Assembly: GCA_963790475.1 (NCBI GenBank)
Contig: CAWBOS010000010.1
Location: 1,664,001 to 1,728,000 of the forward strand
DNA length: 64,000 nt
Source: an uncultured delta proteobacterium
GTDB taxonomy: Bacteria; Desulfobacterota; RBG-13-43-22
Direction of reading: 5' to 3'
The notes below the pieces were generated by a model. The model was not told the origin of the DNA, searched no databases, and saw nothing but the letters and a program-made list of their open reading frames with translations. Each line of letters starts with the position of its first letter. The first letter of the stretch is position 1. Positions 19,814-24,029 of the stretch are shown in pieces. Both the position numbers and the translations under genes were made by a program.

Positions 19814-20974
19814 ATGGACTTTCAATTGACGGAAGAACAAAAACTTTTCAAACAATCGGTACATGATTTTGCCGATTCTCGTATCGCGCCGATGGTGGAC
19901 TATTGGGAGAAAGGAGACCTTTCCCTGGCGCGGAAGGATCTCCTTTCCGAATACCGGGAGTTGGGCTTGCTGGGTATTACCCTTCCGGAGGAATATGGCG
20001 GCCAGGGACTGCCGGCGATTTACGCCATCCTGGCCATGGAAGAGCTGGCCAGGGTCACCACCAGGGCCTCCGGTGTGGTCATGGAGAGCAGTTTCGGGCC
20101 GATACGGGCCGTGGAAAAATTCGGGACGGAAGAACAAAAGCAACGATTTATTCCCCCCTGTGCCCGCGGTGAGAATTTTATGTCCGTCGGCATGACTGAA
20201 CCAGGAGCAGGATCGGCACTGACCGACTTAACAACTCGGGCCGTTCTTAAAGGGGATCACTATGTGGTCAACGGCCAAAAAAGATTTATTTCCGGAGGAG
20301 GCCATTCGGACTGGTATATGGTTTATGTCCGCTTGAGCGATCGTAAAGGACACCAGGGAATCGGCGGAATAGTGGCCGAAAAAGGCACTCCGGGATTTTC
20401 CTTTGGAAAACAGGAAGAATTCATGGGTCTTCACGGCATGCACAGCTGCGATCTTATTTTTGAAGACTGTCTAGTCCCCAAAGAGAATCTGATCATTCCC
20501 GAAGGCGGTTTCGCCAAGTTGATGCAGGCCTTTGATGTGGAACGCTGCGGGAATGCCACCCAATCGCTGGGGATCGCCTGGGGCGCCCTGGAGGCAGCCA
20601 AAAAATATTCCAAGGAACGAACGGCCTTCGGAAAACCCATCTGCGAATTTCAGGCCATACAATTACTCCTGGCGGATATGGCTATGAAGGTCGAGGCCGC
20701 CAGGCTCCTGATCTACCGGGCGGTGGTCAATGCCGGTAATGGATTGCCCTCGGTATTCGAATCTTCCGTGGCCAAATGTTTTGCCAATGAAATCGGCAAG
20801 GAGGTTACGGACATGGCCATGCAGGTCTTCGGCGGGTACGGCTATTCCAAAGAGTACCCCATCGAACGTATGCTGCGGGACAGCCGCGGCTGGCCCCTGG
20901 CCGGAGGTACGGTTCAAATTCAACGGATCAACATCGCCTCGGCTATGCTGGGAAGAAGGTTTGACCAGAGATAG
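19814..20974 (+). CDS. Acyl-CoA dehydrogenase
   Basis: MDFQLTEEQ start after AAGGAG; MTEPGAGS, NGQKRFIS, QVFGGYGY. Confidence 0.93.
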   Translation: MDFQLTEEQKLFKQSVHDFADSRIAPMVDYWEKGDLSLARKDLLSEYRELGLLGITLPEEYGGQGLPAIYAILAMEELARVTTRASGVVMESSFGPIRAVEKFGTEEQKQRFIPPCARGENFMSVGMTEPGAGSALTDLTTRAVLKGDHYVVNGQKRFISGGGHSDWYMVYVRLSDRKGHQGIGGIVAEKGTPGFSFGKQEEFMGLHGMHSCDLIFEDCLVPKENLIIPEGGFAKLMQAFDVERCGNATQSLGIAWGALEAAKKYSKERTAFGKPICEFQAIQLLLADMAMKVEAARLLIYRAVVNAGNGLPSVFESSVAKCFANEIGKEVTDMAMQVFGGYGYSKEYPIERMLRDSRGWPLAGGTVQIQRINIASAMLGRRFDQR

Positions 20975-21001
20975 AGACGTTTCAATAATAGGGAGGGAAA
21001 A

Positions 21002-21133
21002 ATGAAAAAGAGTTTCAGGGGATTCATTTTATTTTTTATTGTTTTCACCCTAATAGGGACGGGCTTAGTCTCTGAAACCGGTGCGGCGGAAAAAGTACAG
21101 TACGGCGGTACGCTCACCTATTTGAAAAGGGGG
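21002..21133 (+). pseudogene. 5' fragment of an ABC (family 5, peptide/nickel-type) substrate-binding protein gene
   Basis: Signal peptide then AAEKVQYGGTLTY; ends at the intron 3' junction and does not resume after the intron. Confidence 0.6.
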
Positions 21134-23067
21134 ATCGAGGTAGGACAGCCAGTTACCCGACTGCCCCCTCACAGACCCCGGCGTGCAGAATTACCGCACC
21201 GGGTTCCTCAGAATTATTCGCTTGGGTGCTTCTGCCCTCAAAAGGCCATTTCCAGTTGCTTCGGCAATTTCTTTTCCGTTATCCGTGGTTTCTCTATCCG
21301 GAAATATTTCAGAAGTTCATTAAAACCAGGCCAGGTGTAACTCTTACGCTGGCTTCTCCGATTCAGACGCTTGAATAATATCCTCATCGCCCGATAGTAG
21401 AATGATGCCAGACTCTTAAAGTTCCCAATCACTCCGTAGTAATTGTAATACCCCCGAAGCTTCGCATTGAGTTTACTGAAAAAGTCTGTCATCCGTAGGT
21501 TGATGTTCTTTCTACACCATTCGTCAAAGTTCTTTATGGAATTCTTGTACTTCTTCCGGGAGGTCCGTTTCCAAATGTGCACTTTCCCTGCTCTGCTCGT
21601 CCTCCATCGAAATTCAAATCCCAAAAATTCAAACATGGCCTTGTCTTCCCTGTGCAGCCGACTAAAACGGATTATCCGTGTCTTTTCTTCCGCCAAGGTC
21701 AGACCGAACTTCCCCAGACGTTTGCCCAGCACATCATAAAACCGCTGGGCATCCCTCTGGCTTTGAAAGGCACATATAAAGTCATCCGCATATCTGCAAT
21801 AGTATGCCTGCCCGCAATGCGCTTTCACCACTTCCTCAAACCACTCATCCAAAACATAGTGTAAGTAGATGTTGGCCAATATCGGCGATACGATTCCTCC
21901 CTGGGGTGTTCCCGTTATGGGATCGATCACCCGGCCTTCTTCCAATACACCGGCCTTTAGCCACTTCCCTATCAAGCCCAGAAACGGCTTATCATCGATC
22001 TTCTTCTTCAGCATCTCCATCAACAGGGTGTGATCGATTGCATCGAAAAAGCCTTTGATATCAGCTTCGACAATATAGTTGAATCCCCCGAACTGAAGCT
22101 TTGTGGATACCTCCTTGATCGCATCCAGTGCTCCCAGTTTCGGCCTATATCCAAAGCTGCCAGCCTTAAATATCGGCTCGTATATCGCTTCCAGTATCTT
22201 GGCTACTGCTGTTCGCAGCAGCTTGTCTTCCGTGGCCGGAATCCCAAGAGGTCTTGTTTTCCCTCCTGGTTTCGGTATGAAACGCCTCAACACCAACTTC
22301 GCCCGATACCAGCCCCCTTTGACCCGCTCGACCAGGTCAACTATATGATCTGTCAATCTCTCCCCGTATTGCCAGTAGGTCACCCGATCTACTCCAGGCG
22401 CTGACTTCCGGTTCATAAATCTCCAGCACCAATACAGCATCTCTGCGTCGATCCGTCCCATCAGGTTCTGAAATCGGTGGTCTTTATGTAGTGCAGATTT
22501 CTCCGCTATTCCCCGCAGTGAGGTTTGCATTAATTCTCCAGCCCGACTTTGTCCGGTTAATGTTTCCTTTGCAGACTACATAATCCTGCTCACCCCTTCC
22601 CCCTGTGATCGGCTCTACCGTCTCTGAGTACTATGAGTGAGTATGACTCCCTGACCGTCTTCGGCACGCCTCCTTTTTCTCGTTGGACACGCCTACCTGA
22701 TCTCCCTTCTTCTCAGGAACTGTCAGGGTCTCCCAGGTTCCATAGTGCTTCTCTTCATACATGCCACGCCCTTCTTCCGACACCGGCAGACCCTCCAGAT
22801 TCTTGCCCTTAACGAATCCTTTGTTTCGGCTTCCGTTCAACGTATAACGTCGCCATCTGCTTCATATGAATTACGATGCTGTATCATGCTTCAGGAGAGC
22901 ACCCCTCTCCCTGTGGCCTATATGATTCCCTGTGTACGCTTCGTGTGGGTCGTTCAACCACTTGTCTATCCTTCCCAGTCACGCAACACTCGGTACGGGT
23001 GGTTGGCTATTCCTTACCCGACAGGGACTCTCACCCTGTAAGAAACACCAGGCTTGGCCTGGCGCAC
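21134..23067 (-). mobile_element. Group II intron (bacterial class E-like, IIB), full length, 1934 nt
   Basis: 5' GTGCG at 23067; DV at 21206-21174 and DVI with bulged A ending ...CCTACCTCGAT at 21134; EBS1 ACGTTG (22843-22838) complementary to IBS1 CAACGT in the 5' exon. Confidence 0.92.
21238..22530 (-). CDS. ltrA: Group II intron reverse transcriptase/maturase (no endonuclease domain)
   Basis: APGVD, RPLGIP, EADIKGFFD, GTPQGGIVSPILANIYLH, RYADD, FLGF, LRGYYNYY. Confidence 0.96.
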   Translation of the reverse strand: MQTSLRGIAEKSALHKDHRFQNLMGRIDAEMLYWCWRFMNRKSAPGVDRVTYWQYGERLTDHIVDLVERVKGGWYRAKLVLRRFIPKPGGKTRPLGIPATEDKLLRTAVAKILEAIYEPIFKAGSFGYRPKLGALDAIKEVSTKLQFGGFNYIVEADIKGFFDAIDHTLLMEMLKKKIDDKPFLGLIGKWLKAGVLEEGRVIDPITGTPQGGIVSPILANIYLHYVLDEWFEEVVKAHCGQAYYCRYADDFICAFQSQRDAQRFYDVLGKRLGKFGLTLAEEKTRIIRFSRLHREDKAMFEFLGFEFRWRTSRAGKVHIWKRTSRKKYKNSIKNFDEWCRKNINLRMTDFFSKLNAKLRGYYNYYGVIGNFKSLASFYYRAMRILFKRLNRRSQRKSYTWPGFNELLKYFRIEKPRITEKKLPKQLEMAF

Positions 23068-23507
23068 ACGTTGTCCATTTAATTCAAAATCTTTTTATTT
23101 TTGGGCGCAAAGTGGGTGTCCCTCCACTTTTGTTACCCTCGCCCCTTGGAGCAATCTCAACCATTGGAACCAAGCCGTCAATGGCTCGGGCACACAATTG
23201 CCTGAACCGGAAAATTTTCTCGGTCTTGATCATCCATCTTTATAAATTTTGCCATGTCTTATTTTCTTCAAGTCGAGCCAGTCCTCCTCGAAGAAGAAGG
23301 GCGACGGCAGCAAAATGGCCTGGCCTCCGGAGGAAATTATTTATCTCTGAGATGGCGGCGAACAATTCGAGCGATATTGATTGCCGCACTATATGCCTCT
23401 TTGGGGGAGTTCGGCCCAGAGGGGCTTACCCCCCGTAGATCGGGACGTTGGTTCTAAGTTGCATAACTTCCATACTCGTAAGTTGTTTGACTCCCTATCA
23501 TTATTAT

Positions 23508-24029
23508 TTAATCCCATGACCTCCGGTGCCAAAACTCTCGTTTTAGTCCCTCGTAGAGGTTGAAGACGATCGGGCAAATCTGGCAATTTGAAAAAGCCTG
23601 GTTGACCCTGAAAATGAATTCCCGCTTGTGCAAGTGGGGAAATGAGCGACAGTCGGCCGGCCTTTGGTCATAAACAGTACAACGATTGTCCTTCAGAAAA
23701 GGACAGGGAAGGGTATTGAAGGTCTCACCTTCTCCGTCTTCGTCCGTCCGCAGGTATCGGGCACGAAAGGCACTCACGGGCAGGCCCTGCGCTTGTGAAA
23801 GCCGTTTTACATCCGCCTTAGTGAGAAGAGGCCGGGACACCCGGCAGCAGTTAGCGCAGGAGGTGCACTCGATCCTGGAGGATAGTTCCCGGTACAGTTG
23901 GTGAACCTTGGAGTCGATTCTGTGAATCGACCAATTGGAGCTTTTCAAAAAACATCGGAAAGCCCAATTAGCCTTTTCCCGAAGCCGGGCGAGTTTTTCA
24001 ATCCTGTTGATATCGGTCTCTATTTCCAT
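23508..24029 (-). CDS. YkgJ family CxxCxxCC cysteine-cluster protein
   Basis: CTSCANCC, PCPFL..NRCTVY..RP..CRSFP. Confidence 0.88.
   Translation of the reverse strand: MEIETDINRIEKLARLREKANWAFRCFLKSSNWSIHRIDSKVHQLYRELSSRIECTSCANCCRVSRPLLTKADVKRLSQAQGLPVSAFRARYLRTDEDGEGETFNTLPCPFLKDNRCTVYDQRPADCRSFPHLHKREFIFRVNQAFSNCQICPIVFNLYEGLKREFWHRRSWD

Follow-up and report, generated by a model that had tools for sequence, protein, structure and literature searches.

A predicted endonuclease-less group II intron that probably targets the terminal inverted repeat of elements that encode TIRYT-type Y1 transposases

The window analysed here, a stretch of 64,000 nucleotides from an uncultured delta proteobacterium (assembly GCA_963790475.1, contig CAWBOS010000010.1, forward-strand positions 1,664,001 to 1,728,000), carries on its minus strand a IIB-like group II intron that is predicted to lack an endonuclease and is apparently intact. 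The intron probably occupies its cognate homing site, the terminal inverted repeat (TIR) of elements encoding TIRYT-type transposases, and its lineage appears to use this repeat as a landing site. Throughout, C numbers denote contigs of the source genome (G000), G numbers related genomes and L numbers intron or repeat loci.

The intron and its encoded protein

The features of the locus are compiled in Table 1. Both termini of the intron, GTGCG at 23067-23063 and ...CTCGAT finishing at 21134, agree with the GUGYG/AY ends of bacterial group II introns and are shared by its relatives; read along the minus strand, the element is preceded by ...TTAAATGGACAACGT and followed by CCCCCTTTTC. The Rfam model of domains I to IV (D1-D4, RF02005) is matched over positions 1-225 of 225 with 112.9 bits, against a gathering score of 49. 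The intron-encoded protein (IEP) contains reverse transcriptase (RT) and maturase regions (Pfam RVT_1, 3.4e-35; GIIM, a weak match at 5.5e-4) and scores 343.7 with the NCBIfam group II RT-maturase model TIGR04416, whose cut-off is 300. No HNH, other endonuclease or DNA-binding domain was found in the IEP by the Pfam scan, and the protein stops about 33 aa past the GIIM match. The open reading frame (ORF) and the ribozyme both appear intact. A preliminary description of this DNA had reported the intron, its flanks, a hairpin bearing the target-binding loop, a second copy of the insertion motif and a palindrome, all of which were found where it had placed them.

The remaining RT genes of the assembly are only about 30% identical to the IEP (C10:894945-898154, C10:351975-352907, C13:43939-45135, C13:214509-215705, C15:64431-65627 and C15:448049-449246). 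Four RT places share an identical match score and extent (413 aa at 30.5% identity); at least one unrelated multi-copy retroelement family therefore resides in the same genome.

Table 1. Coordinates of the intron, its target repeat and neighbouring features in the window
Feature	Position	Strand	Remarks
Complete group II intron	21134..23067	-	1,934 nt; starts GUGCG, ends ...CUCGAU; boundaries as in relatives
Ribozyme domain I-IV region	22770..23031	-	Rfam model alignment
Exon-binding site 1 (EBS1), ACGUUG	22838..22843	-	in 8-nt terminal loop 22845-22838; complementary to intron-binding site 1 (IBS1), CAACGU
Putative EBS2, UUCAU	22866..22870	-	~25 nt upstream of EBS1; pairs with AUGGA 23078-23074, 5 pairs including one G-U
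IEP, 430 aa, RT + maturase (X), YADD motif	21238..22530	-	open frame in domain IV
Domain V (D5) hairpin with 2-nt bulge	21173..21207	-	fold; kept in relatives; D5 ~34 nt
Domain VI (D6) helix, unpaired A near 3' end, 3' splice site	21134..21167	-	fold of last 100 nt; kept in relatives
5'-exon part of repeat, TTTTGAATTAAATGGACAACGT	23068..23089	-	IBS1 23073-23068, putative IBS2 23078-23074
3'-exon part of repeat, CCCCCTTT	21126..21133	-	repeat ends at +8
Probable remnant of TIRYT transposase C-terminus	23084..23239	-	51-codon open frame, TGA 23086-23084 inside repeat
Palindrome with 7-bp stem	23109..23130		AAAGTGG (23130-23124) with CCACTTT (23115-23109); within decayed coding remnant
Unoccupied second copy, a repeat variant, GGAAGTTATGCAACTTAGAACCAACGT/CCCG	23441..23471	-	potential insertion point 23445/23444
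44-codon N-terminal fragment, signal peptide then ...YGGTLTYLKRG	21002..21133	+	cut at repeat/intron boundary

Pairing between intron and target

On the minus strand, CGTT (22849-22846) and AACG (22837-22834) enclose the loop ATACGTTG (22845-22838), which is left unpaired by the Rfam D1-D4 model and contains an EBS1 complementary to IBS1 at 6 of 6 positions. Among relatives the two sequences change together: L081 pairs ACGUAG with CUACGU, a change on both sides, L002 and L004 pair UAACGU with ACGUUA, and L031 pairs UAACGG with CCGUUA. Because of this covariation the assignment of EBS1, made already in the preliminary description (ACGTTG, 22843-22838), is confirmed.

The equivalents of the putative EBS2 in L004, L081, L082 and L094 are candidate loops that could pair with the bases at -7 to -12 of their own exons; L098 fits poorly, and for this reason the assignment of EBS2 is tentative. 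Downstream of the intron, the candidate IBS3 is the C at 21133, and the +1 base is C in 16 of 16 close relatives; a single EBS3 pair with this base is presumed.

Group IIC introns are recognised by a short EBS1, the lack of an EBS2, a shortened D5 and insertion after a hairpin. Membership in that group was considered and rejected: EBS1 has 6 nt, there is a candidate for EBS2, D5 is about 34 nt long, and the hairpin in the target motif is unconserved.

The target repeat and its host elements

Joined to each other, the exons form part of a 30-nt motif, TGAATNNNNTGRACAACGT/CCCCNTTT (the slash marks the insertion point), whose CCCC end points outward. This motif recurs at 12 other sites of the source genome when up to 8 mismatches in 30 are allowed, and nhmmer finds 17 matches to it. 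With the pattern TGAATNNNNTGRACAACGTCCC and at most 2 mismatches, 20 further copies are found in the source genome, and copies are present in 21 of 21 family genomes (223 matches, against 3 for a reversed control). Comparison of element copies from three to four genomes places the outer end of the repeat 8 nt beyond the insertion point, since the similarity runs through CAACGT/CCCCNTTT and is followed by unrelated flanks.

The repeat is the TIR of elements of about 1.05 kb encoding a RAYT-like Y1 (HUH) transposase with a putative C-terminal helix-turn-helix (HTH). At C6:805631-806614, a gene of 328 aa lies between two inverted copies that agree at 24 of 30 positions and have their CCCC ends on the outside. 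The stop codon is overlapped by the downstream copy; some 35 nt separate the upstream copy from the ATG, and a promoter-like site (TTGACA-17-TATAAA) is next to it. The joined exons of the intron are identical to this upstream copy (C6:806655) at 28 of 30 positions. The genome encodes three paralogues of the C6 transposase, one with a GGGGGACGTTG end upstream and another with a diverged motif directly after its stop codon. Inverted pairs about 1.03 kb apart that enclose the gene occur in G000, G016 and G013, TIRYT coding sequence lies beside 12 of 30 repeat loci sampled across the family, and five family genomes hold 4 to 16 TIRYT matches each, fragments included.

The Y1 proteins score 33-54 bits with Pfam Y1_Tnp (cut-off 23) and display HVH and YIHLNP motifs. 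With the NCBIfam model REP_Tyr_transpos (cut-off 80), one of them (y3) reaches 92.4 bits and two remain below (y1, 54.9; y2, 70.7); the match of the 328-aa C6 protein to the NCBI RAYT model is below the cut-off. For the C-terminal HTH, Bac_DnaA_C (E 0.0055 and 0.00079) and HTH_23 (E 0.0055) were recovered, all below the Pfam cut-offs.

Elements of this kind, in which a RAYT-like gene lies between inverted repeats with a common motif starting with GGGG, have been described as TIRYT or TIRtron, and some of these repeats form moderate families of single, paired or clustered copies (Di Nocera 2013, PMC3733652). Such proteins were later assigned to subclass 2.1, with DnaA-C or HTH tails (Quentin 2018, PMC6006769). 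The elements targeted here resemble them in the RAYT-like Y1 protein, which measures about 320-330 aa and has a putative HTH tail, and in having inverted repeats that start with GGGG, one of which overlaps the 3' end of the gene, together with a family of solo and paired copies. They differ in that the outer end of the repeat, GGGG(G)ACGT (GGGGACGT), fits the published GGGGWSAS at 6 of 8 positions (PMC3733652). Invasion by introns goes unmentioned in the main texts of both studies, 'intron' occurring 0 times in PMC3733652 and 'group II' 0 times in PMC6006769. The preliminary description suggested that Y1/HUH elements end in ...ACGTCCCC tails, which is borne out by the inverted copies that flank Y1 genes; its likening of these ends to those of IS200/RAYT elements holds for the relationship to RAYT and fails for the architecture, the elements being flanked by TIRs and not hairpin-ended as in IS200.

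Solo copies of the repeat are scattered between genes, for example in a cluster at C1:86-122 kb among ordinary metabolic genes. A small GGAC..GTCC hairpin inside the repeat is not preserved among copies. No family was matched in an Rfam scan of the transposase loci and of the C1 cluster, which argues that the repeat is not a known RNA.

Several further observations concern the repeat and its elements. Between 86,000 and 107,000 on C1 (L165, L166), composite intergenic repeats are clustered downstream of metabolic genes and hold the terminal-repeat motif plus ...CAGACnAAAnAGACC...GGTTGAAAGATAAAATCA... and ...TCACTAACATCTTCTTCTGTTCTTTATG...; the tract ...cagactaaatagacc... of this cluster also trails a second TIRYT gene (C6:223,9xx). 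At C12:129096-129140 one repeat copy is preceded by the inverted half GAGGACGTTGTGAATGAATTGGACAATGTGCCCC, giving a palindromic layout of two tips with no cargo. A genome of a different genus encodes, at G016:C5:297773-298843 (L195/L216), a TIRYT protein 98% identical to that of the C6 element, and the two repeat-core matches of this element, TGAATAAAGTGAACAACGTCCC and TGAATTAAATGAACAACGTCCC, are identical; the likeness of the two elements suggests recent horizontal movement. In G001, at least three inverted repeat pairs lie about 1.04 kb apart.

Insertion sites of related introns

Relatives with IEPs 81-93% identical were collected from public genomes and metagenomes, and the intron DNA was searched in 61 related genomes; duplicate views of a locus were counted once (L045=L169=L226, L170=L229, L171=L230, L178=L227, L179=L228 and L168=L225, the last being the window). 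Within the close clade, the 5' exons end in ...aaatggaCAACGT (window), ...tcagaaaCTACGT (L081), ...aaggtaaCTACGT (L082), aaCAACGT (L084), ...aaattggCAACGT (L094), ...cagtgaaCAACGA (L098), ...ggtggaaAACGT (L172), ...tcagaaaCAACGT (L173) and ...aaatgaaCAACGT (L174), so that 7 of 9 loci share the terminus C[A/T]ACGT. The 3' exon starts with C in all 16 close-clade loci and with CCC in 14 of them, the exceptions being L170 and L182; in a sister clade (IEP 70-75% identical, EBS1 UAACGU) none of 8 loci has a 3' exon starting with C. In several genomes and metagenomes, relatives 85-93% identical occupy different repeat copies whose outer flanks are unrelated, in agreement with the earlier proposal that the lineage is specialised on a repeated mobile-element end.

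TIRYT adjacency was searched in 179 loci (160 + 19), mostly short contigs or distant relatives. TIRYT coding sequence was found about 600-700 nt from the intron, or from a fragment of it, in L082, L174, L179, L180 and L002, and 1.8 kb away in L092; the chance of such adjacency, estimated from the number of TIRYT matches per genome, is about 1% per locus. In L174, from another genus, the end of the TIRYT gene (...TTGVAMAVKG...) is followed by AACTGAATGAAATGAACAACGT and then by the intron. The 5' exon of the intron always faces the TIRYT gene: in the window, L082, L174 and L180 the intron lies downstream on the same strand, and in L179 and L002 it lies upstream on the opposite strand, its 5' exon still towards the gene. 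This constancy is what insertion in the sense orientation into an inverted terminal repeat predicts.

Intron copies truncated at the 5' end (n = 11, in G006, G007 and G019) all have different break points and are scars of a retro-element. That they are whole introns split by an inserted element was also considered and rejected, the missing 5' part not being found upstream in L179.

In the sister clade (L088, L089, L090, L093, L004, L085 and L031; IBS1 ACGTTA), a motif GCGCCGCTGA lies about 8-12 nt before the splice site in the 5' exon, and in L090 and L093 a GC-rich hairpin (CAGCGGACGC...GCGCCGCTG) has this motif as its 3' arm; the target of this clade may be another element, either repeated or a hairpin. 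One member of the sister clade, L002, adjoins the decayed 5' end of a TIRYT gene. In L005 and L086 the 3' end of one intron abuts the 5' end of another (...CTGCGAC/GAGCGCC and ...CCCCAAT/GCGCGCC), in tandem or nested copies.

A model of target use and the evidence that weighs against it

The intron RmInt1 of Sinorhizobium meliloti homes in the insertion sequence (IS) ISRm2011-2 and encodes an IEP that likewise has RT and maturase regions and lacks a DNA-binding/endonuclease domain (PMC4075523, PMC8914252). Its target is read by EBS1, EBS2, EBS3 and a few flanking positions, to which the window intron can be likened, and its natural homing site similarly lies within a multi-copy mobile element, with a bias towards the lagging-strand template (PMC4075523, PMC8914252). 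This likeness is one of features; RmInt1 is of class D. The two cases differ in the host, a DDE-type IS for RmInt1 and a Y1 (HUH) TIRYT element here, and in the position of the site, which for RmInt1 is in the body of the element and here is in the TIR, 8 nt from the tip. Because the site lies in the terminal repeat itself, solo repeats are targets as well.

In the proposed model, the spliced intron RNA reads a site located 8 nt inside the outer end of the repeat through the 6 pairs of EBS1 with CAACGU, about 5 tentative pairs of EBS2 with AUGRA and a presumed pair of EBS3 with the C at +1. By analogy with RmInt1, the intron would then reverse-splice into DNA that is transiently single-stranded at the replication fork, where the +2 to +4 positions may be recognised by the protein, and its own RT would copy it. 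Since the IEP has no nuclease, priming would probably be provided by the nascent lagging strand at the fork, again as in RmInt1. The GC skew of contig C10 changes sign near 950 kb, being positive over the stretch 0 to 950 kb and negative over 950 to 1900 kb. At 1.686 Mb, the intron is on the G-rich strand; from this skew the minus-strand intron would be co-oriented with the fork, its sense strand corresponding to the lagging-strand template. A conserved, multi-copy and mobile repeat would offer the intron many harmless landing sites together with a ride between genomes.

Several observations weigh against this interpretation or limit it. At about -0.03 to -0.05 the skew is a shallow one, which makes the strand argument soft, and both splicing and mobility of the intron are predictions from its sequence. 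When both strands of the 6.34-Mb assembly are counted, the 9-mer CAACGTCCC is found 36 times where base composition predicts about 45, and neither it nor shorter cores are enriched; the 9-mer had been put forward in the preliminary description, and it is the 30-nt motif alone that is over-represented. L098, L172 and L082 have one IBS1 mismatch each, and the upstream half of the sites in L082 and L094 is unlike the common repeat variants. Even at E values up to 1, the Rfam family for D5-D6 is not reported for the intron. The D5 triad, usually AGC, reads AAC (GAAC...) throughout the clade of the window intron; in the distant relatives L092, L093 and L095 it reads GAGC..., and the opposite strand changes with it (G opposite, not A). 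The case for a transposase remnant in the 5' flank (Table 1) is weak, blastx of 23040-23700 against four Y1 proteins having given only sub-significant matches (E above 0.1). Finally, the intron is present in one copy in the assembly, three perfect-match empty sites (C11:137337+, C6:805630- and C6:806658+) are unused, and intron DNA occurs in 10 of the 61 related genomes, source included, and in 7 of 20 other family genomes, against 21 of 21 for the repeat, so that a very active element is disfavoured.

The single copy, the perfect sites left empty and the unusual D5 triad would also fit an immobile relic, that is, one old and vertically inherited insertion of a lineage that does not presently target the repeat, and the public runs gave nothing usable on expression or splicing. 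Such a relic is unlikely: the ORF and ribozyme are intact, close relatives are found in different repeat copies with unrelated outer flanks, truncations have arisen many times independently, and in L081 EBS1 has changed together with IBS1.

A possible contribution of the transposase

Homing into the terminal repeat, as proposed here, raises a further alternative, that the intron exploits DNA processing by the TIRYT protein, either because the repeat becomes single-stranded during transposition or because a 3'-OH at the tip of the element primes RT. A nuclease is missing from the intron protein, Y1 enzymes work on single-stranded DNA at forks (PMC6006769), and the outer end of the repeat maps to +8. 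In L179, L180 and L182 the repeat standing before the truncated intron is complete, up to +7 or +8, and its last 9 nt, CCCCTAAGT, recur in the 3' exon of L180, as do 6 of 7 nt in L179; this is the layout that would be expected if reverse transcription were primed at the target, by a bottom-strand break at +8/+9, and the cDNA were then aborted. If so, an endonuclease-less lineage would borrow the nuclease it is missing, and the truncated copies would be scars marking the TIRYT cleavage point. These cases are only three, with junctions placed by eye to an accuracy of about 2 nt, and L182 has no duplication. The truncated copies L185 and L231 join the 5' part of the repeat to the intron through a GAAC microhomology, and tandem repeat copies followed by a deletion would give the same picture. 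Solo repeats far from any transposase gene are also invaded, and the idea is accordingly considered quite improbable.

The window locus and its unoccupied copy

The 5' flank of the intron is interpreted, with moderate confidence, as a decayed and internally deleted TIRYT element. Its open frame ends in a stop codon inside the repeat, a layout that matches the intact gene, and contains VPMVEIA (23170-23150), the counterpart of which in the intact protein, IPMAEIA, is at a similar distance from the stop; the surrounding DNA is similar to that found in the same region before two other repeat copies. Further upstream, DQDRENF (23231-23211) resembles the N-terminal D(K/Q)DRE(D/L)F of TIRYT paralogues. 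The palindrome within this remnant was considered as a structured target or a terminator and rejected, its folding energy being unremarkable (z -1.38) and the terminator scan leaving it unflagged.

A second CAACGT/CCCG lies at 23450-23441 in the same orientation as the occupied site; from the count of the 9-mer, the post-hoc probability of a second copy within 400 bp and in this orientation is about 0.002. The sequence at 23471-23441 (GGAAGTTATGCAACTTAGAACCAACGTCCCG) has two relatives of 26-28 nt in the genome (C6:21865-21890 and C11:162315-162342) and agrees at 18 of 20 positions with the repeat next to the TIRYT gene in L180, and a related variant, TCAATTCAGAAACAACGTCCCC, has four good copies in the genome and is the site used by L081 and L173. 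By this sequence comparison, the empty copy is a genuine, rarer variant of the repeat. The empty copy reported in the preliminary description, at 23445/23444, is thus real; it is a less complete target, offering IBS1 at 6 of 6 positions and C at +1, and pairing with the putative EBS2 at only 2 of 5. This poor match is the simplest reason for its being empty.

The proposal that 23068-23450 is a small non-autonomous cassette, with an occupied and an empty CAACGT/CCC end and mobilised by a Y1 protein, is very doubtful: both ends do belong to the repeat super-family, the interior bears faint traces of the TIRYT N- and C-terminus, and decayed C-terminal TIRYT fragments beside the repeat are common in related genomes, but the two copies are direct repeats of different variants where in real elements the copies are inverted, the 380-bp interior is found nowhere else in the genome (only the two motif ends match elsewhere, and beyond them its DNA has no likeness to intact elements), and no target duplication or empty allele was found, synteny breaking at 20974.

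On the other side of the intron, the 3' exon is antisense to the plus-strand 44-codon fragment, which has no Pfam match and resembles C6:100309-100350 over a short stretch of DNA. In comparisons with five same-genus genomes, synteny ends at or just past the stop codon of an acyl-CoA dehydrogenase (20974), extending to 21005 in G011, where a secreted hydrolase-like gene follows in the place of the signal-peptide fragment of the window. The synteny break and the fragment point to a rearranged locus (20975-21133 and 23441-23560), a hot spot. An orthologous empty site or pre-insertion allele was not recovered in 13 same-genus genomes, in which synteny is broken. No contig joining across the intron was found in four public runs. 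One run, which may be the source sample, contains about half of the sequence words, and the others cover only the intron, at 90-95% likeness, as expected of relatives in other contexts; no conclusion is drawn from them.

Comparison with other systems and implications

Group IIC introns insert after terminator hairpins. They resemble the window intron in being endonuclease-less and in using a recurring structured or repeated motif, including the integron attC sites with which they are associated (PMC7923331), and differ from it in that EBS1 of the window intron has 6 nt, its EBS2 is plausible, its D5 is of full length and its motif is read as sequence. Introns in IS605-family transposons are alike in that a retro-intron resides inside an element with a Y1 transposase, and differ in encoding RT-HNH proteins and in being occasional insertions, no specialisation of a lineage on element ends being described in the passage on them in PMC4810608. 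In Pseudomonas putida, two of nine introns are near repetitive extragenic palindromic sequences (REPs) according to a table entry (PMC1525189), and the literature searched at the level of abstracts and main texts contains only incidental mentions of a link between introns and TIRYT or RAYT genes. The behaviour proposed here is already known from RmInt1; what is new is that the host element is of another kind and that the site lies in a terminal repeat and its solo derivatives.

A lineage that follows the terminal repeat of TIRYT elements adds to RmInt1 a second well-documented instance in which an endonuclease-less intron makes its home on another mobile element, here on its terminus and solo derivatives, and provides a natural marker of the repeat across genomes. 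TIRYT elements are common and experimentally uncharacterised, their movement and cut site being raised as an open point by Di Nocera 2013 (PMC3733652); the junctions of truncated insertions coincide with the tip of the repeat and may report on DNA ends made there. With about 14 paired bases plus CCCC, the repeat would also offer a defined natural target for studying how endonuclease-less introns choose their sites.

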